A stretch of DNA of 64,000 nt from IMG/VR virus record IMGVR_UViG_3300032038_000033, positions 40,461-104,460 of that record; one strand, 5' to 3'. Below the pieces are notes generated by a model. That model did not search any database. It was given only the letters and a program-made list of their open reading frames with translations, and was not told the origin of the DNA. This stretch comes from a virus. Lineage: Duplodnaviria; Caudoviricetes. Positions within the stretch are counted from its first letter, which is position 1. Each line of letters starts with the position of its first letter. This document shows positions 39,060-57,917 of this stretch, piece after piece. A program made the translations under genes and the position numbers.

Positions 39060-40512
39060 TATTATAGTAAAAATAATAAAGGAGAATTAAGAATTATGAA
39101 AACTTATATACTTAAAGATAAAAAACAGCAACCTACATTTAAATATTTTGTACAGAAGGAAGGAAGTAATAATTATTATCTATTTAATGAGTTTGATAAG
39201 GCTTTTGATAAGATGAGAGAATTATATAATTCTTATCTTCTTGAACCTATATTTGTACCAATGAACAGAGAATGGAAAATGAGAAGAACTTTTATATGTA
39301 GAGAGTTTAAAACTGATTATTTAGGTGATAGTGGTGATATACTGTTACATACAAAATTTTATTGTGACGCTGGTGAATGTATAAATTATGTGTTATTTGA
39401 GAAAGGACTGAATTGATATGAGCGAATTTCAAAAAGAATATCAAAGACTATGCGAAATAGATAGAAAAATAACTGAAGAAATGGTCAGAGATGGTGAATT
39501 AACGGAAGAGGAAGGTTATATGCGAAATGATTTTCGTAGATTAGAAATTTTAATGGAGATGGATGACGATTATGAATAATATAAAACTGAGATTTGAAGA
39601 ATTAAGAAATGAAATAAAAGATTATTATGATGATTTATATGATATATACCATATGAGCATTATGCCAAATTCTAATTTGTTTAAAATTTATCATGAACAT
39701 TACGTTTTCGATGAAGATAAGTCTGTAAAGTGGAATAAGGAACAGGTAGAACTTAAAAATGAAGAATATAAGCAGGAAAAAGAACGTTTAATTAAACTTA
39801 GAGATAAAGAATGGAAAGAATTGAGTAGTAAGATAGCAAGAAGGTTATTAGAAGCTTCGCAGAATTGGTATCGTGATGAAATTAAGTTATCACTTAAACA
39901 GTTAAATTTAATTGTACTTTATGCTATGGAATATGCACCAAAAAATTATGAACCCACTAACATTATTGATTCAATTATGCTTAATTTGAATCTTGCTGTA
40001 GATTTAAATATTTAATTAATGAGTAGATAGGAGATAGATGATTTATGAGCTTTAAAGGGTATCTTGATTATACAAAATACTATAAGTCAAATACTAAACT
40101 AATTAAATTTAAAGTTGTAAATATTGGAGATGTTTTACAAAGAGAACTTACAACAGTCATTAAGTTATCTGATAATTATAATTACAATAAAAGAATGAGT
40201 GAACAACAAAGTAATGCTTTTTGTTTAAATTCCAGACATTATATCGTAGTACACCTAGAAAGTAATTGGGTCTTAGTTAAATCACTAAAAGATTTTTAAA
40301 TAAGATATGTAAAGGGTGTGATAAATAATGATAGAACTAATTCCAATTAAAGATAGAAAAGGTAAATGTTGTCTTTGTGGCTCTGAGTTTATAAAATATA
40401 GAATTATATATAGAACAACTACAAGAGATGTGTGTAATGTTTGTGCTTTGGTCCATTTATATATAAGTGAAGACATAAAAACTGTAAGTGAATTGAATGA
40501 AAAACATCAAAG

Positions 40513-49541: not shown

Positions 49542-50429
49542 ATGAAAGAAGTAGTTGATTTTAAAGGAATTAAGTACAATAGTATAAATCAAATGTGTAA
49601 GGCATATAATATTGACCCTTGTACTTTTAATGAAAGACTTAGAAGAGGTTATAATTTAGAAAAAGCTTTAACTTTTCCTATCACATCACCTTCAAAATCT
49701 ATTGTAGACTTTGAAGGTAATAGGTTTGATAGCATTACTAATATGTGTAAGTATTACAATATAAGTGTAGTTACTTATAGAGCGAGATTACGCAGTGGTT
49801 GGGATTTAAAGAAAATTTTAACCACTCCTATTGGATATAATTATATTACTGCTACAGATTTTAATGGTAATAAGTATAGGAGCGTTGCTTATATGTGTAG
49901 TCATTTTGGTATTCCAAGAAAGAGTTATATTTATAGAATTAATAATGGTTGGTCACAAAAAGAAGCTTTAACTATTCCAGTTGGATGTAAGCCACCTATA
50001 AATGAAAGACTAAGTAATGTAGTCAAGCAAACATATAATGTTAATTCTGAAGAATTTCAAGAACGTAAGTATTTATCAGTTGTTATATTAAATCCACAAA
50101 CACAGGAAAAGATACAGGTTATTACCGACTATAAAGGGAATGTATTTTCTTCTAAATCTAAATTACTTAAACATTATGATGTTTATGATAAATGGTTTGA
50201 TAATAAATTAGTCAAGGAAGGTCTTAAAGCTGCCTTAACAAGAAAACAAATTAAAGACCATTTAGGTAATGTTTATAGTTCTAAGACAGCTATGTATAAA
50301 GCATATGGACTTAAAAAGCAAACTGCTGAATTTCGTTTAGAAAGAGGTTGGACTTTAGAACAAACTCTAACAACACCAGTAAATCAAAAACCTAAAAGAG
50401 TACCTAATTATGTGACAATAGTTAAGTAA
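49542..50429 (+). CDS. tandem-repeat putative DNA-binding protein
   Basis: About 5 repeats D(F/H/Y)xGxxYxSxxxMCxxYxI...RL..GW.L..ALT.P; no nuclease motif seen. Confidence 0.65.
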   Translation: MKEVVDFKGIKYNSINQMCKAYNIDPCTFNERLRRGYNLEKALTFPITSPSKSIVDFEGNRFDSITNMCKYYNISVVTYRARLRSGWDLKKILTTPIGYNYITATDFNGNKYRSVAYMCSHFGIPRKSYIYRINNGWSQKEALTIPVGCKPPINERLSNVVKQTYNVNSEEFQERKYLSVVILNPQTQEKIQVITDYKGNVFSSKSKLLKHYDVYDKWFDNKLVKEGLKAALTRKQIKDHLGNVYSSKTAMYKAYGLKKQTAEFRLERGWTLEQTLTTPVNQKPKRVPNYVTIVK

Positions 50430-51452: not shown

Positions 51453-52733
51453 ATGAACAAAGGAAATAGAGTTTTTGTACTCAATATGAGAGGTAAATCT
51501 CTTATGCCTTGCACTCAAAGAAAAGCCAGAATACTTCTAAAAAAAGGAAAGGCAATTATCAAAAAGTATAATCCATTTACAATTCAGTTGACTTATGTAA
51601 CTGGTGAAGCAAAACAAGATTGTAATATTGGCGTAGATACTGGTGCAAAGCATATAGGTATTGCTATTACTTCTGGAGATAAAGTGCTTTATAAAGCAGA
51701 AATAGAATTAAGACAAGATATTAAGTCAAATCTTGACACAAAACGAATTTACCGTAGAAGTAGAAGAAATCGTAAAACAAGATACCGTAAACCACGTTTT
51801 CTTAATCGTAAAAGAACAGATAAATGGTTGCCTCCAAGTCTACAAACAAGAATTAACCATACATTCCGTTGGATAGATATATTTAATACTCTCTTACCTA
51901 ATGCTATTTTACATATAGAAGTGGGTAAATTTGACACAGCAAAGATGATAAATCCTGAGATAAATGGTGTAGACTATCAACAGGGGCAAACATATGGTTT
52001 CTTTGATGAAAGATATTATGTATTTGCAAGAGATAATTATACTTGTCAAGTATGCAAGTGTAAAAATAAAATACTACGAACACATCATATAATTTATCGT
52101 AGTAATGGTGGTACTAATAGAGTAAATAATTTAATTACAGTTTGTACAGATTGTCATACATCGGAGAATCATAAAAAAGGTGGTATTTTATATAAATGGC
52201 AAAAAGAACATAAAAAAGTAAAACAATACAAAGAACCACCATTTATGAATATACTTCGTAAAAGAATATTTACTCAATATCCGTCAGCAGTTATAACTTA
52301 TGGTTCAGAAACAACGCCAAAACGAAAGCAAATGCAATTAGATAAGACACATTATAATGACGCTATTGTTATAAGTGGGATAAACACTATAAAAGAATGT
52401 CCTAATGAGTGGTTACTTATAAAGCAATTTCGTAAAAAGAAGCGTTCATTACACGAAGCAACTGCTCGTAAAGGTAGAAAAGAACCAAATAGAACACAGA
52501 AACGAAATAGTAAAAATACACCTTATTATAAAGGCTTCTATTTGAATGATAGAGTGTTTACATTAGGAAAAGTAGGATATATAACAGGATTTACAAGTGG
52601 TGGTGTATATATAAAAAATCAAAAAGACGAATACATAACATTACCTAACAAAACATATAAACAAGTAGGAATTGCTAATATAAGATTGATAAATCATAAC
52701 AATAATTGGCAATATTTTAGTCAAGTTGGGTAA
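51453..52733 (+). CDS. iscB: RNA-guided endonuclease IscB
   Basis: SLMPC, GVDTG, bridge helix, IEVGKFD, HNH (CQVC..THHI..NLITVCTDCH), HYNDA. Confidence 0.95.
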   Translation: MNKGNRVFVLNMRGKSLMPCTQRKARILLKKGKAIIKKYNPFTIQLTYVTGEAKQDCNIGVDTGAKHIGIAITSGDKVLYKAEIELRQDIKSNLDTKRIYRRSRRNRKTRYRKPRFLNRKRTDKWLPPSLQTRINHTFRWIDIFNTLLPNAILHIEVGKFDTAKMINPEINGVDYQQGQTYGFFDERYYVFARDNYTCQVCKCKNKILRTHHIIYRSNGGTNRVNNLITVCTDCHTSENHKKGGILYKWQKEHKKVKQYKEPPFMNILRKRIFTQYPSAVITYGSETTPKRKQMQLDKTHYNDAIVISGINTIKECPNEWLLIKQFRKKKRSLHEATARKGRKEPNRTQKRNSKNTPYYKGFYLNDRVFTLGKVGYITGFTSGGVYIKNQKDEYITLPNKTYKQVGIANIRLINHNNNWQYFSQVG

Positions 52734-53163
52734 AATCATTGGCAATTCATCCCACGAACCTAAAGGTTTGGAGATTTCTTGCCAGAACATTTTAAAGGAG
52801 ATTGGGAAAAATGATTGAAAACAAGGTAGAATTTGTAAAGAAGTTTGAGGCACTTTTAAAGGAAACAACATCTTTTGAAGATTTACACAGGCTCGATTAT
52901 ATAAAGGAAGATATAGAAATTCTTGTTATTACTTATAAGGATGGTAGTCAGAAGAAACTTAATATTAACAATGATACTTGTTTTGGTATTATTGCAGACT
53001 TTTCTAATAAGGTTGATAGATGTAAATATATAGCTCTTGAAGATAGAATTACTGAATTTTTACCGAAAAGAAATACTCCAACATTTGACAAATTAATTAC
53101 AAATGGTTTAGGTGCAGTCGCTTCTACAATAGCTAACTATAATATATAAAGGAAGAATTAGCT

Positions 53164-53613
53164 ATGATATTATACATTAGAGAATTTGCAGAAAGTAAGA
53201 AGGAAATAGAAAGAGAATTAAGTGCTGTTACAACTCCTATTATTAGACATTTATTTAAACTTTATTGTTTACCTAATCATAGAAGTAGAAATCATTGGAT
53301 AGCAGAAATTGCTAATTTTCTAAGTTCTGTTAAAAGACTTTCAGGTAAGAATAAATTTCCTAATAGGAATCAAATTATGGATTGGACTTACTATAAATGG
53401 GAAGACCTCTTAACCGATACTGAATTTATGAAGAGAGAAATAGATACAATAGAGTTTAAGTATGGTGTAATTATAGATAAGTCTATTGATGATGTTTGTG
53501 AAACATTTAATGCTTTATGTTATGATTATTTTCTTTGGGTAGCCAATGAATTAAGTCAATACGGAAATATTGGTCACGGTTCCATATACAATAAATTAAA
53601 TGAATTATTTTAA
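53164..53613 (+). CDS. DUF29-like protein with YIRE propeptide-like motif
   Basis: IIRHLFKL..NHW..EI helix pattern; N-terminal MILYIRE|F. Confidence 0.5.
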   Translation: MILYIREFAESKKEIERELSAVTTPIIRHLFKLYCLPNHRSRNHWIAEIANFLSSVKRLSGKNKFPNRNQIMDWTYYKWEDLLTDTEFMKREIDTIEFKYGVIIDKSIDDVCETFNALCYDYFLWVANELSQYGNIGHGSIYNKLNELF

Positions 53614-53634
53614 ATATAAAGGAGTTGTATTTGT

Positions 53635-54216
53635 ATGAGACAAGTAAGGCAAGGTTGTTTTGAAACTAACAGTTCTTCCGCACATTGTTTAATTATTAAA
53701 AAAGATAATGATTATGAAACTGTAGAAGAACTTGAAGAAGATATGTTTATACATAGAATAGGTAGAGATGAGTGGACTACAGAAAAAAATGCAAATAGAA
53801 TAAATTTATGTATTTGGGATAAGGACGAAGATTTACGTTTTGAGAGATTTCCATTTCAAGTATTGACTTCTTCTCGTGATAAATTAAGATATTACATAGC
53901 GTCTGAATGTAAAACGGAAGAAGATATTAGAAAGGTAGAAGATACTCTTAGAAATATGTTTGATGATATTCAAGAAATTAAGTTTTGTGATGATGAGAAC
54001 TGGGGTGATGGAGATTATGACCAGTACGGTTATGCTCAAAATTATGGTAGTTTTAAAACAGCTTTAAAACAATACAATATTGATTTAAAAGAATTTCTTA
54101 CTAATAGAAAGTATGTTGTTATTGTTGATGGTGATGAGTATAACGAGTTTTATAAAATGCAGAAAAGTGGACTTATAAATTCCGATAACATAGAGGAGAT
54201 ATTTAACTTGTATTAA
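53635..54216 (+). CDS. FETNSSS-motif protein A
   Basis: MRQVRQGCFETNSSSAHC. Confidence 0.75.
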   Translation: MRQVRQGCFETNSSSAHCLIIKKDNDYETVEELEEDMFIHRIGRDEWTTEKNANRINLCIWDKDEDLRFERFPFQVLTSSRDKLRYYIASECKTEEDIRKVEDTLRNMFDDIQEIKFCDDENWGDGDYDQYGYAQNYGSFKTALKQYNIDLKEFLTNRKYVVIVDGDEYNEFYKMQKSGLINSDNIEEIFNLY

Positions 54217-54247
54217 GATTGGAGATATTTTAAAGGAGTGACTTGTT

Positions 54248-54745
54248 ATGAAACAAATAAGAAAAGGTGTTTTTGAAACGAATAGCAGTTCTGTACACGC
54301 CATTTGTATAAATAATCACTATGACATACATAATGTTGACGGTATTTGTTTTGGATTTGGTGAATTTGGTTGGCAATGTGATACATTAGATTATTTAGAT
54401 GGTAAGGCTGATTATCTTTGGACCGCCATTAATGAATTTTATGAAGATGAACCTGATAAAATTGAGGAAATTTGCAATAAAATAAAAGAATGGTTTAGAG
54501 ATGATTGTATTATTGCTTTATTTAAGGAGAAAAATGAAGATGATATTTGGAAGAATGGCTATGTTGACCATTGTAGTGAACTTATAGATTTCTTAGAATG
54601 GGTGTTAGAATGTAAGGATAATTTATATTCTTATTTGTTCGGAGACAGTCTTGTTGAACTTGGCAATGATAATGATGAAGACGCTATACCTTCCATTGGT
54701 AACTACAATGAAAAGTACGATAGAGTATTTGTGAAAGGGAATTAA
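54248..54745 (+). CDS. FETNSSS-motif protein B
   Basis: MKQIRKGVFETNSSSVHAI, GYVDH. Confidence 0.75.
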   Translation: MKQIRKGVFETNSSSVHAICINNHYDIHNVDGICFGFGEFGWQCDTLDYLDGKADYLWTAINEFYEDEPDKIEEICNKIKEWFRDDCIIALFKEKNEDDIWKNGYVDHCSELIDFLEWVLECKDNLYSYLFGDSLVELGNDNDEDAIPSIGNYNEKYDRVFVKGN

Positions 54746-54746
54746 G

Positions 54747-55649
54747 ATGAACAATGTATTAGGTAGATATGTAAATGGTAATTATACAGTTACTATATAT
54801 AATGACGGTACAAAGATTAGAGAAAACGATTTAGATAATTTAACACCTACCTTTGCTGAAAACTGTGATGTTAAAATTACAGATAAGTGTGACGGCGGTT
54901 GTGATTTTTGTTATGAAAATTGTACGCCATACGGAGAACACGCTAATTTATCTAAATATAATTTCTTATATAATCTTCATCCATTTACTGAATTAGCTCT
55001 TAATGGTAATGATTTAAGTCATCCACAACTTTTATATTTCTTAAAAATGCTAAAAGAACAAGATGTTATAGCTAATATGACAGTTAATCAGAAACATTTT
55101 ATGTACTATTATAATTATATTAAATCTCTAATCGACAATAATCTTATAAAAGGTCTTGGTATATCATTAAGAAATATAAAAGAAGAAAACTTTATCGAAA
55201 GAGTTAAAACAATACCTAATGCTGTTATACATACTATTGCAGGTATTACTACCTTAGAAGAATATGATTTCCTCGCTCAAAACAAGTGTAAAATACTTAT
55301 TCTTGGATATAAAACAAGAGGCCGAGGTATAGAGTTTAAACAGAAATATGATAAAGAAATAATTGAAAATATATATGGTTTGCATAAGCATTTACCAGCT
55401 TTACTTGGTTTAGCTAATCTTGTAAGTTTTGATAATCTTGCTATAGAACAGTTAAATATAAAGTCTATGCTTACAGAAGAACAATGGCAAAATTTTTATA
55501 TGGGTGATGACGGACAATATACATTCTATATTGATTTAGTTAAAGGTACTTTTAGTCGTAATTCTGTAAGTGATATAAGACATGAAATAGGGAGTAAAAC
55601 TATTGATGAAATGTTTAAGATTATTCAGACAGAAGCGAAGGGTGAATAA
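54747..55649 (+). CDS. radical SAM protein
   Basis: CDGGCDFC (CxxxCxxC); no C-terminal SPASM cysteines. Confidence 0.88.
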   Translation: MNNVLGRYVNGNYTVTIYNDGTKIRENDLDNLTPTFAENCDVKITDKCDGGCDFCYENCTPYGEHANLSKYNFLYNLHPFTELALNGNDLSHPQLLYFLKMLKEQDVIANMTVNQKHFMYYYNYIKSLIDNNLIKGLGISLRNIKEENFIERVKTIPNAVIHTIAGITTLEEYDFLAQNKCKILILGYKTRGRGIEFKQKYDKEIIENIYGLHKHLPALLGLANLVSFDNLAIEQLNIKSMLTEEQWQNFYMGDDGQYTFYIDLVKGTFSRNSVSDIRHEIGSKTIDEMFKIIQTEAKGE

Positions 55650-55819
55650 CAATAGAGCTATTATACACCCAGATGTGTAAACATTAATAAATAAATATTA
55701 AAAATTTTGTTAAAAATTACTATTTACAAATTAAAATTTTTGTGTTATACTTATGTTAATATAATAATTATTAAAAATTTAGTTATTATAAGTATAATTT
55801 TATAAAAGGATTGATTTGT

Positions 55820-56431
55820 ATGAAAACTAAAGATGTATTAAGAGTTTTAGGTATTACCCGTCCTACATTAACTAAATATGTTAAAAATGGAACTATAGGT
55901 ATTACTGAATTAGCTAATGGTAGATATGATTATAACGAAGATGATGTTTATAAATTTTTAAATAAAGATTGTAAACGTAAAACAGTTATATATGCCAGAG
56001 TTTCTACTAAAAAACAAAAGAAAGACCTTGAAAATCAAATAGAAATGTTAAAGCAATTTTGTTTTATGAATGGATATACATTAAGCGGTATCTATTCTGA
56101 TATTGCAAGTGGTATTTCTTTTGAAAATAGAAAAGAATTTTTTACTTTACTTGATGAAGTTATTGCAGGTAAAGTCGATAAAGTTATCATTACTTACAAA
56201 GATAGACTTTCTCGTGTTGGATTTGAATTATTTAAACATTTATTTTTAAGATTTAATACTCAAATTATTGTACTTTCTGAAATCGGCAATACTAAATTAG
56301 ATTCAGAAGAAATATTTGAAGAGATTATAAGTCTTTTACATTGTTATTCAATGAAGTTATATTCAAAGCGAAATAGAGCTAAGATACAAGAGATTATAAC
56401 TAATTCAGAAGAAAGTGATACAAATGAGTAA
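55820..56431 (+). CDS. tnpA: IS607 serine recombinase TnpA
   Basis: N-terminal MerR-like HTH, YARVST, SDIASG, DRLSRVG. Confidence 0.93.
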   Translation: MKTKDVLRVLGITRPTLTKYVKNGTIGITELANGRYDYNEDDVYKFLNKDCKRKTVIYARVSTKKQKKDLENQIEMLKQFCFMNGYTLSGIYSDIASGISFENRKEFFTLLDEVIAGKVDKVIITYKDRLSRVGFELFKHLFLRFNTQIIVLSEIGNTKLDSEEIFEEIISLLHCYSMKLYSKRNRAKIQEIITNSEESDTNE

Positions 56432-57917
56432 TACTGAAAATAATTATATTGTGGAATTACCTTTATTTGTAGAATCCTGGCAAGCAGATATAATTGATAC
56501 ACGATTAGAGATTGGCAGAAAAATTTATAATGCTTTATTAAACATAGTAGTAAAGCGTTACAATGAACTTACTAAAACTAAGTTATATAGAAATCTTAAA
56601 GAACAGTTAGTTTCAGCTCTTAAAATAAAGAATAAAGAAGTTAGTAAAGATATAGGCAAACAATTAAGTGATTTAGAAAAACAATATAAACTCACTAAAT
56701 TTGATATAATAAATGATGTTAAAGAAATGCAACATCATTTTAAATGTCATATACATTCAAGAGTAGCACAAGAAATAGCTAAAAATGTTTATACTGCTTT
56801 GTATTCTGTACTTTATAAAAATGGTAAAGAATTTCATTTTAAGAAGTTTGGAACATTTAATAGTTTGCAAAGTAATGAAATTAATCAGGCTATTATTTTT
56901 AATACAGATTATGTTAGTTGGACAGGATTACAATTAGCTGTAAAATATCCTAATAACATTAAATTTCAACAATATCTTCAATATAATTTATTTGATAATA
57001 TAGATAAATTACGTTATTGTGCTATTATACGGAAATATATAAGAGGTAAACGAAGATACTATGTACAACTTACATTTAGAGGTAATATAAAGCATACAAA
57101 ACGTAAATTAGGTTTTGGTAGAGTAGGTTTGGATATAGGTACATCTACATTAGCAATTTCGTCTAATAATGCTGTTGATTTAATTGAATTAGCAGACAAA
57201 GTTCAGAATGTTGAAAAAGATATTAAAAGACTTCAACGTAAGATGGATAGAAGTAGAAGAGCTAATAATCCTAATAAATACAATGCTGATGGAACATATA
57301 AAAAGAATAATAAAGATAAGTGGAAAAATTCAAACCGTTATATTAAATATAGAAATGAACTTAGAGAATTATTCAGAAAACAGTCTGTTATCCGTAAATT
57401 ACAACATAATCAATTAAGTAATTATATTATATCATTAGGAAATGAATTTTTTGTAGAGACTATGAATTTCAAAGGATTACAAAAAAGAAGTAAGAAAACT
57501 GAAAAGAAAGCTAATGGTAGATATAAATGTAAAAAACGTTATGGTAAATCTTTAGGTAATCGTGCTCCGTCTATGTTGCTTACATTACTTAGTAATAAAT
57601 TAAAACATCTAAATAAAGAACTTGTAAAAATTAATACTCAACAATGTAAAGCAAGTCAATTTAATCATATTACAGGTGAATATAAAAAGAAATCTTTAGG
57701 TCAACGCTGGAATATGATTAATGATAGATTAGTTCAGAGAGACTTGTATTCAGCATTTCTAATATCTAATGTAAATAATACTTTAGATTCATTTAATATT
57801 TCATTATGTAATGAAAAATTTGATAATTTCTTATTATTACACGATAATAAAATAAATGAATTAAAAGTACAAAAGAATTTAACCAATAAATCATTTCTAT
57901 CTTGTATGGGAATATAA
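56424..57917 (+). CDS. tnpB: IS607-associated TnpB
   Basis: RuvC GLDIG, FVETMNF, QRDLYSA; RLQRKMDRSRR helix. Confidence 0.92.
   Translation: MSNTENNYIVELPLFVESWQADIIDTRLEIGRKIYNALLNIVVKRYNELTKTKLYRNLKEQLVSALKIKNKEVSKDIGKQLSDLEKQYKLTKFDIINDVKEMQHHFKCHIHSRVAQEIAKNVYTALYSVLYKNGKEFHFKKFGTFNSLQSNEINQAIIFNTDYVSWTGLQLAVKYPNNIKFQQYLQYNLFDNIDKLRYCAIIRKYIRGKRRYYVQLTFRGNIKHTKRKLGFGRVGLDIGTSTLAISSNNAVDLIELADKVQNVEKDIKRLQRKMDRSRRANNPNKYNADGTYKKNNKDKWKNSNRYIKYRNELRELFRKQSVIRKLQHNQLSNYIISLGNEFFVETMNFKGLQKRSKKTEKKANGRYKCKKRYGKSLGNRAPSMLLTLLSNKLKHLNKELVKINTQQCKASQFNHITGEYKKKSLGQRWNMINDRLVQRDLYSAFLISNVNNTLDSFNISLCNEKFDNFLLLHDNKINELKVQKNLTNKSFLSCMGI

Follow-up and report, generated by a model that had tools for sequence, protein, structure and literature searches.

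A widespread phage gene module combining a compact radical SAM enzyme with diverse small proteins that share a conserved N-terminal tag

Background

SkfB (PDB 6EFN) and SuiB (PDB 5V1Q/5V1T) are radical S-adenosylmethionine (SAM) maturases of ribosomally synthesised peptides with post-translational modifications (RiPPs), and both carry an N-terminal peptide-recognition domain. In these systems one enzyme is encoded beside ribosomally made substrates that share a conserved N-terminal recognition sequence. Here we analysed a locus of comparable layout from a virus of the class Caudoviricetes, in which two genes, F1 and F2, whose products begin with a nearly invariant sequence (the tag), are followed by the gene for a compact radical SAM enzyme. 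The three tightly packed genes lie on the + strand at 53635-55649 of the window, by which we mean the whole 64,000-nucleotide stretch that was analysed (positions 40,461 to 104,460 of IMG/VR record IMGVR_UViG_3300032038_000033). The tagged proteins, called partners below, are the putative substrates of the enzyme.

SkfB and SuiB were the best structural matches of this enzyme, but the systems differ in several respects. The SPASM/twitch domain and auxiliary cluster of SkfB and SuiB are absent from the phage enzyme, and sequence similarity is nil. Where they have a full winged-helix recognition element, the phage enzyme is predicted to have an N-terminal beta-meander of about 35 residues; maturases that depend on the RiPP recognition element (RRE) bind the leader as an added strand on a winged-helix domain of about 80-100 residues, and in the model of the phage enzyme only the meander precedes the barrel. 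Furthermore, the phage partners are folded proteins of 92-280 aa and not short peptides, and while the core of a RiPP lies C-terminal to the leader, in the phage module the conserved segment itself is the candidate site.

A second parallel is found in anSME/AtsB (PDB 4K36-4K39), where one radical SAM enzyme serves many whole proteins that have a short invariant Ser/Cys motif near the N-terminus. However, anSME has two auxiliary [4Fe-4S] clusters in its SPASM domain, which the phage enzyme lacks, and the sulfatase motif C/S-x-P/A-x-R lies within one conserved fold, whereas the phage motif, aromatic-E-T-N-S-S, stands at the extreme N-terminus of apparently unrelated bodies. EpeE/YydG (PDB 8AI1), the third-best structural match, uses a Cys as hydrogen-atom donor, and extra conserved Cys residues (C40 and C59) are also present in the phage enzyme; the solved EpeE entries are described with plural [4Fe-4S] clusters, whereas the phage enzyme has no cysteines for a second one. 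Viperin (PDB 5VSL) and BlsE (PDB 7VOB) are likewise compact radical SAM enzymes of similar size, but their substrates are free nucleotides or nucleosides and they have no dedicated protein partner family.

Radical SAM peptide systems other than the present one are the subject of PMC7159879. Literature searches on the motif, on phage radical SAM counter-defence and on the cyanophage Ma-LMM01 retrieved no description of the module. The module is real, widespread and without description in the searched literature, and for neither protein family is there a model in Pfam or NCBIfam or a function that has been named.

Results

Linkage of tagged genes and the enzyme gene

A preliminary description of the window, made from the sequence alone, had grouped F1, F2 and the enzyme into a three-gene module. 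Among 80 viral loci collected with the tag as seed, the enzyme gene was present in 78, usually within 1 kb downstream. When 80 further viral loci were collected with the enzyme as seed, in a search blind to the tag, 79 contained one to six tagged open reading frames (ORFs), which shared the strand of the enzyme gene and lay immediately before or after it. Tag and enzyme were adjacent in approximately 98% of the sampled viral loci, which, with the thousands of tag matches described below, far exceeds what chance would give. Genome contigs were sampled with one genome per species of bacteria and archaea, and both families were found in 63 of the 75 tag loci obtained, with up to nine tagged ORFs. 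These contigs were mostly metagenome-assembled and came from gut Clostridia, Bacteroidota, candidate-phyla bacteria and others; several of the exceptions were short contigs. The linkage was thus conserved across genomes, and the objection that the genes might be unlinked elsewhere fails. A conserved module was therefore found as proposed, but its gene number is not fixed at three: the core consists of one enzyme and any number of tagged proteins, from one to nine. The largest expansion, nine tagged ORFs in 12 kb, was seen in metagenome-assembled contigs of rumen Fibrobacter and Prevotella (L211 and L213), in which only the edge of the enzyme gene lies inside the stretch.

All fifteen Lak megaphage records carried the module, with five tagged ORFs after the enzyme gene in Lak-A1 (L160). 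It was also present in the cultured Microcystis phages Ma-LMM01 and MaMV-DC and their relatives. In Ma-LMM01 the module sits among replication genes; gp130 is a clear F2-type protein and gp128, annotated as 'Fe-S oxidoreductase', is the enzyme. The product of the gene between them, gp129 (L161:4631-4969), is an untagged protein of 112 aa with a phage ProQ C-terminal-like domain (PF24203, E 6.7e-15), and gp131, annotated as 'histidyl tRNA synthetase', gave no Pfam match.

Enzyme and tagged protein were fused in frame in two contigs from different metagenomes (L107:5995-7356 and the same coordinates in L108). The product of 453 aa (P0237) consists of the enzyme, a linker of about ten residues and a tagged protein whose part has no start codon of its own. 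A radical SAM protein of 461 aa in BFVD, weakly F2-like, is probably another enzyme-tag fusion. Longer or fused forms of F2 were looked for and none was found, which is weak evidence.

Beyond the pair, the neighbouring genes were not conserved, any single gene being present in at most 31 of 161 loci. The commonest was a class-V aminotransferase/cysteine desulfurase gene (PF00266, E 3.7e-61), located upstream in 31 of the 161. RNA ligase, Thg1, a polynucleotide-kinase-like ATPase and a nucleoside deoxyribosyltransferase were encoded near some loci. Another radical SAM-like protein, smaller than the enzyme (243 aa, motif GCDCHCKYC, weak PF04055 match), was encoded about 5 kb downstream of the module in 19 of the viral loci, for example at L154:11123-11854.

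Conservation of the tag

The consensus of the tag was M-K-x-Q-I-R-x-G-V-[F/W/Y]-E-[T/S]-N-S-S-S-x-H-S-[I/L], and positions are numbered here from the aromatic residue (position 0). In a set of 361 unique tags, collected with position 0 unconstrained and one mismatch allowed, R(-4), the aromatic residue, E, T/S, N, S, S and H(+8) were near-invariant. Position 0 was F in 344, W in 14 and Y in 3 of these tags and was never aliphatic. There was no variation at E, N and the first two Ser; the T was replaced only by S, and the third Ser position also held T, A, L, M or H. Gly was found two residues before position 0 in 58% of 260 unique tags, with N in 21% and S in 14%. The tag started 8 or 9 residues ahead of the aromatic position and ended sharply, the information content falling from more than 4 bits to less than 1 bit within about 13 residues past the motif.

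Between them, 398 DNA versions of the tag used every one of the six Ser codons and of the six Arg codons. This codon usage indicates that the constraint acts at the level of the protein, and an element in the DNA or RNA was ruled out as the cause of the conservation. When 1.84 billion proteins were searched with a 33-column profile of the tag, 7,394 representatives of clusters at 50% identity matched, and in all but seven of the best 150 of these representatives the match began at residue 1-3.

In five loci (L113, L118, L119, L125 and L129) every paralogue had W instead of F at position 0. The Ser codons differed between the paralogues of such all-W loci, and in L113 and L129 synonymous codons differed, while L131 and L142 were mixed for the aromatic position. 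Enzyme positions 108 and 233 tracked W, but they are clade features that are present in F-tag loci too, and they were rejected as a case of tag-enzyme covariation.

F1, F2 and other tagged partners

The two window proteins had been described as divergent paralogues with an almost invariant N-terminus, and the ORFs proved exact. BLASTP aligned the first 33 residues of F1 and F2 with 15 identities (45%, E 9e-8), both N-termini reading M(R/K)Q(V/I)R(Q/K)G(C/V)FETNSSS(A/V)H. The weaker motifs reported further along both proteins were real but faint: with the tag removed, 18 F1-type and 86 F2-type bodies were aligned by hhalign with a probability of 78% (E 1.8e-5, 53 columns). This alignment paired FERFPFQ..DKLRYYIAS of F1 with FGEFGWQ..GKADYLWTA of F2, and YVVIVDGDE of F1 stood at the place of the F2-family TGNDN motif (LGNDN in the window F2). 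The faint body-only match and the DGDE at the TGNDN place mark F1 and F2 as distant paralogues.

The F1 subfamily (18 members from related loci) keeps F..F, KL.Y..A, GY and Y.(I/V)..DGDE. In the F2 family the invariants beyond the tag are W42, Y56, D107-H108, G139-N140-D141-N142 and K163-G-N165 at the extreme C-terminus. F2 matched phrog_28997 across residues 3-164 (E 1.6e-17), F1 in the tag region only (E 0.005), and a near-length search with F2 gave 113 metagenomic relatives without names. The AlphaFold2 model of F2 was confident overall (predicted local distance difference test (pLDDT) 88, predicted template modelling score (pTM) 0.85); residues 1-11 were below 50 and residues 15-21 were modelled as the first strand of the body. 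The best matches of this model were at E 1.0 in the PDB (Foldseek) and at Z 2.9 among 48,161 chains (VIA-align), and the sole match in BFVD was an uncharacterised relative; these searches thus identified no solved fold for F2. A Tad2-like hit in a viral cluster of the ESM Atlas (TM 0.62) was kept as a lead only, as the PDB searches gave it no support. Nothing significant was found for F1, F2 or the enzyme in Pfam, NCBIfam and PADLOC, or for F2 among the PDB sequences.

From the 160 related viral loci and the window, 353 tagged ORFs of 92-280 aa were collected, 260 of them unique. Their bodies fell into 22 BLAST components, two of which were large, one F1/F2-like (126 members) and the other a short type (92 members) with a median length of 123 aa and a C-terminal end of G-Y-G-Y-D. 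Profile comparison detected no relation of the short-type body to F1 or F2, and a Pfam scan of ten further tagged subtypes gave nothing significant. In some loci the sole partner was a short-type protein of 98 aa. By sequence comparison, the partner bodies appear to be of at least two unrelated types, and the tag appears to be the only feature common to all partners. The partners were strongly acidic as well, with a median isoelectric point (pI) of 4.56 and a pI below 5.5 in 96% of them, compared with 47% of the other ORFs of similar size in the same loci.

The radical SAM enzyme

The enzyme matched phrog_16999, 'Fe-S oxidoreductase', with E 2.6e-39. Against Pfam PF04055 the window protein had no match and 12 of 24 homologues scored below threshold (best E 0.019), because the family is very divergent; its membership is decided by fold and motif. 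Searches against NCBIfam and PDB sequences gave no match, a profile of 24 enzyme sequences found everything in the PDB at E > 0.1, and the prokaryotic viperin (pVip) profile matched faintly and not significantly (E 0.012). At E <= 0.001 there were at least 7,533 enzyme clusters (90% identity). The family was highly conserved, the best 120 matches being 53-64% identical, apart from one near-identical neighbour at 89%; none had a functional name, and the few named by their source were called 'hypothetical protein'.

C48, C52, C55 and C59 were invariant in the 24 homologues and C40 was present in at least 90%; these are the only conserved Cys residues, no SPASM/twitch cysteine set was found, and the enzyme has no Cys past residue 181. 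The preliminary description of a CxxxCxxC enzyme without SPASM cysteines that starts 1 bp after the F2 stop was thus borne out by the sequence and by the homologues. One homologue, P0209, is extended at its C-terminus by about 85 aa that show the pattern CxxC...CxxC.

The AlphaFold2 model (pLDDT 87.7, pTM 0.84) contained a radical SAM barrel, with the CxxxCxxC motif after strand 39-43. In the VIA-align ranking the first 27 matches were all radical SAM enzymes, unlike the other three of the best 30; Foldseek gave 14 matches at E <= 0.001, and 13 of them belonged to this superfamily. The highest VIA-align scores were those of SkfB (Z 17.6, 270 residues) and SuiB (Z 16.5, 280 residues), followed by EpeE (15.1), BlsE (14.8), viperin (14.6 over 217 residues, with the lowest root-mean-square deviation (rmsd), 3.2 A), ChlB (14.4), anSME (13.8) and PqqE (13.8); pyruvate formate-lyase (PFL) activase scored Z 10.2. 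Foldseek matched SkfB and SuiB at E 4e-6 to 2e-5 and other peptide or protein modifiers, including CteB. On the evidence of the motif and the predicted structure, the enzyme is a member of the radical SAM superfamily.

Ahead of the barrel, the model places the three-stranded meander (strands 4-10, 13-18 and 23-26) and no winged-helix helices. This N-terminal part contains the invariant residues Y8, N10, G11, G21, T22, K23, R25 and P34, and only the structural alignments with SkfB and SuiB reached it. The modelled meander is a candidate docking site for the tag.

Membership in the group of SPASM/twitch maturases (SkfB, SuiB, CteB, anSME and PqqE) was ruled out because the enzyme has no C-terminal Cys-rich domain, and it works like them at most. 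One feature of that group was seen in the enzyme-seeded loci, in 79 of which the putative substrates, the tagged ORFs, adjoin the enzyme gene. A glycyl radical activase and client system was ruled out since the tag has no invariant Gly, which clients of this kind carry in an RVxG(Y/F)-type motif.

Discussion

Taking the gene order, the protein-level conservation of the tag, the linkage seen from either seed, the natural fusion and the enzyme's radical SAM fold as our observations, we infer binding, a covalent change, its chemistry and a biological role. In the reading that we favour, to which we assign a probability of roughly one half, a single enzyme recognises a diversifying set of phage proteins by their tag, which it probably modifies. 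That the enzyme engages the tag directly is very likely, because one enzyme serves many partners that have only the tag in common, the two are naturally fused, the tag and the meander are strictly conserved, and the enzyme resembles peptide modifiers. For a covalent change of the tag we consider the odds to be about even.

The flexible first half of the tag would bind the enzyme, possibly as an extra strand on the N-terminal meander, so that the aromatic-E-T-N-S-S segment would come to lie inside the barrel, above the [4Fe-4S]/SAM site. A 5'-deoxyadenosyl radical would then take a hydrogen from the tag, leading to a covalent change needed by all partners. As to the chemistry, our first preference would be an aryl-alkyl or ether crosslink using the obligatory aromatic residue. 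The second would be a Cys-assisted epimerisation with C59 or C40 as hydrogen donor, and the third a viperin-like dehydration or an oxidation of Ser. The polar nature of the invariant tag residues and the strictly aromatic position 0 may favour a chemical role, the aromatic residue recalling SuiB-type crosslinks, and by analogy with the Cys of EpeE the extra residues C40 and C59 could serve as hydrogen donors. Binding of a flexible N-terminus is consistent with the F2 model, in which residues 1-11 of the tag have low confidence and the body is confident. Similarly, the nearest solved relatives picked out by the enzyme model, SkfB, SuiB, EpeE, ChlB, CteB and anSME, modify peptides or proteins, and the cysteine desulfurase gene near the module in 31 loci points in the same direction.

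Several observations weigh against modification of the tag. The closest structural relatives all carry SPASM/twitch auxiliary clusters, which the enzyme lacks, and the nucleotide and nucleoside enzymes viperin and BlsE score nearly as well as the peptide modifiers (Z 14.6-14.8). In the F2 model the second half of the tag is predicted to be the first core strand, so that the tag would not be a free leader. The polar invariants of the F2 subfamily itself (DH, GNDN and the terminal KGN) could combine with the tag into a site for a ligand or for catalysis, and an enzyme and its substrate are less typically fused than subunits are. No convincing covariation was found between tag variants and enzyme residues. 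Finally, several genome-contig loci with long flanks contained tagged ORFs and no enzyme within 6 kb.

The preliminary description had the enzyme act on the N-terminal motif, for example by turning Ser into formylglycine, so as to mature an enzyme. Action on the motif remains the best-supported reading, given that the tag alone is common to one to nine partners per locus, that the two proteins occur fused and that the structural relatives modify peptides. Formylglycine formation, one option among several, is disfavoured because the auxiliary clusters of anSME-type enzymes are absent and two-electron oxidations are less straightforward without them. The maturation of an enzyme found no support, since the bodies seem to be of at least two unrelated types and are small, acidic and without a known catalytic fold.

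An alternative that we consider rather unlikely makes the tagged proteins adaptors or subunits. The tag would dock them on the enzyme and perhaps complete its active site, and the bodies would select or deliver targets such as host proteins, nucleic acids or small molecules, so that the target and not the tag is modified. The natural fusion, with the enzyme N-terminal and the tagged protein C-terminal, suits this idea, as does the use of a single enzyme for one to nine different bodies; the polar invariant residues of the tag (E, T, N, S, S and H) resemble those of ligand or metal contacts, the second half of the tag would belong to the folded body in the F2 model, and the conserved polar and aromatic constellation of the F2 subtype could be a binding pocket. 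However, no target is evident, the bodies are strongly acidic and very small, with lengths going down to 92 aa, and the nearest relatives of the enzyme use the peptide itself as substrate. The aromatic requirement at position 0 suits chemistry or recognition equally.

Less probable still is that the tagged proteins are themselves enzymes or ligand binders, with the N-terminal motif as their own catalytic or phosphate-binding loop, and that the substrate on which they and the enzyme work together is a nucleotide, a tRNA or another small molecule. Auxiliary clusters are absent from viperin and from the enzyme alike, and among the structural matches viperin combines Z 14.6 with the lowest rmsd, 3.2 A, in addition to the faint pVip profile match (E 0.012). 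The nucleic-acid and nucleoside enzymes encoded near some loci, the position of the Ma-LMM01 module among replication genes and the F2-type invariants DH, GNDN and KGN would also fit a pathway of this kind. On the other hand, these invariants are absent from F1 and the short type and only the tag is universal, no neighbour beyond the two families is conserved, and the F2 model matches no known nucleotide-binding fold. Variation between one and nine paralogues is unexpected for a fixed pathway; the suggestion in the preliminary description that the three proteins act together on a nucleotide is less likely for this reason, as copy number and body type vary freely.

It is very improbable that the enzyme is an activase which puts a stable protein radical on the tag, in the way that PflA and NrdG serve glycyl radical enzymes and GrcA, a small spare-part protein. 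One activase-like enzyme without auxiliary clusters does stand beside protein clients, PFL activase is among the structural matches and Gly is common two residues before the aromatic position; but that Gly is not conserved, an RVxG-type motif is absent, the partners are far too small and varied for glycyl radical enzymes, and PFL activase ranks well below the peptide modifiers. T4 internal proteins have conserved N-termini that contain a capsid-targeting and protease-cleavage sequence, and the conserved N-terminus of these diversifying tandem small phage proteins, including a V-F-E that resembles a hydrophobic-x-Glu cleavage motif, recalls them; yet a sorting or processing signal whose linkage to the radical SAM gene is incidental is hardly credible in view of the two-way linkage of approximately 98% to one enzyme family, the fusion that places the tag inside a protein, and the invariant residues that run well past any such cleavage site.

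Should the tag indeed be modified by the enzyme, the reaction would add a new protein modification to those of radical SAM enzymes, one achieved in the absence of auxiliary clusters, and a short portable tag might find use in protein engineering. In a more specific form, which we hold tentatively and at somewhat less than even confidence, an auxiliary-cluster-free radical SAM enzyme would install a novel modification on the portable N-terminal tag of whole folded proteins, such as a crosslink from an aromatic to an alkyl group or a group derived from Ser/Thr. This would be a RiPP-like maturation on the scale of proteins, with which phages arm a family of acidic effectors that diversifies fast. 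The diversifying acidic bodies may be phage effectors, and a role in host takeover or counter-defence is suggested by the fact that the partners are small, acidic, diversifying and variable in copy number, and are encoded among genes of replication and nucleic-acid metabolism. The module would then define a large unexplored class of early, acidic, diversifying phage proteins, which would all rely on one shared maturation step and are plausible as factors of host takeover or counter-defence. Each of the two families is very large, with about 7,400 tag clusters beside those of the enzyme. The pairing is found in thousands of phages, the Lak megaphages among them, and the families extend over phages that infect Bacteroidota, Clostridia, candidate-phyla bacteria and cyanobacteria. 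Ma-LMM01 is a cultured phage that carries a testable copy of the module (gp130/gp128).

Organisation and surroundings of the window locus

The sequence comes from a single contig of 104,460 bp with a G+C content of 27%, and the window makes up the right-hand 64 kb. Of its 119 ORFs with a length of 100 aa or more, 114 lie on the + strand, a bias which indicates a phage genome. The coordinates of the module are given in Table 1. F1 and F2 were the sole tagged proteins found by a tag search of this genome, and the window copy is an ordinary, intact two-partner example of the module. Both genes are preceded by an AAGGAG ribosome-binding site (53619-53624 for F1, 54233-54238 for F2), the TAA stop of F2 and the ATG of the enzyme are separated by a one-base spacer, and about 160 bp of non-coding DNA with promoter-like sites follow the enzyme gene.

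Table 1. Features of the module (window coordinates)
Feature	Position	Strand	Description	Basis
F1	53635..54216	+	193 aa, acidic (pI 4.6), tagged, 'DGDE' subtype	ORF
F1 N-terminal tag	53635..53700	+	residues 1-22, MRQVRQGCFETNSSSAHCLIIK	BLASTP of F1 against F2; tag alignment
F2	54248..54745	+	165 aa, acidic (pI 4.3), tagged, 'DH / GNDN / KGN-end' subtype, phrog_28997	ORF
F2 N-terminal tag	54248..54313	+	residues 1-22, MKQIRKGVFETNSSSVHAICIN	BLASTP of F1 against F2; tag alignment; model
Compact radical SAM enzyme	54747..55649	+	300 aa, phrog_16999 'Fe-S oxidoreductase'	ORF; profile match; model
Enzyme N-terminal beta-meander (predicted)	54747..54851	+	residues 1-35, three strands, family-specific	model; invariant residues
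Cluster-binding motif	54888..54923	+	C48-x3-C52-x2-C55, then invariant C59	sequence; homologue alignment

Upstream of F1, a terminator-like hairpin (52755-52770) is followed by two small genes (52802-53149 and 53164-53613). No homologues of either gene were found in 80 related loci, which places both outside the module. Further upstream, a protein of 295 aa (49542-50429) consists of about five repeats of approximately 55 aa with the pattern DF.G..Y.S...MC..Y.I......RL..GW.LE.AL..P, and nothing above threshold was found for it in Pfam. The hairpin itself comes after the gene of a 426-aa protein (51453-52733) which looks IscB-like and has an RRXRR domain (E 1.6e-61) and an HNH domain. Directly downstream of the module, an IS607-type pair occupies 55811-57917, so that the module is bounded on this side by a mobile element. 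Its first gene encodes a serine recombinase with a MerR helix-turn-helix (PF00239, E 1.8e-21; phrog_6620, 'transposase'), and the second, which overlaps it, is a TnpB-like gene of 500 aa (phrog_506, E 5.9e-43).

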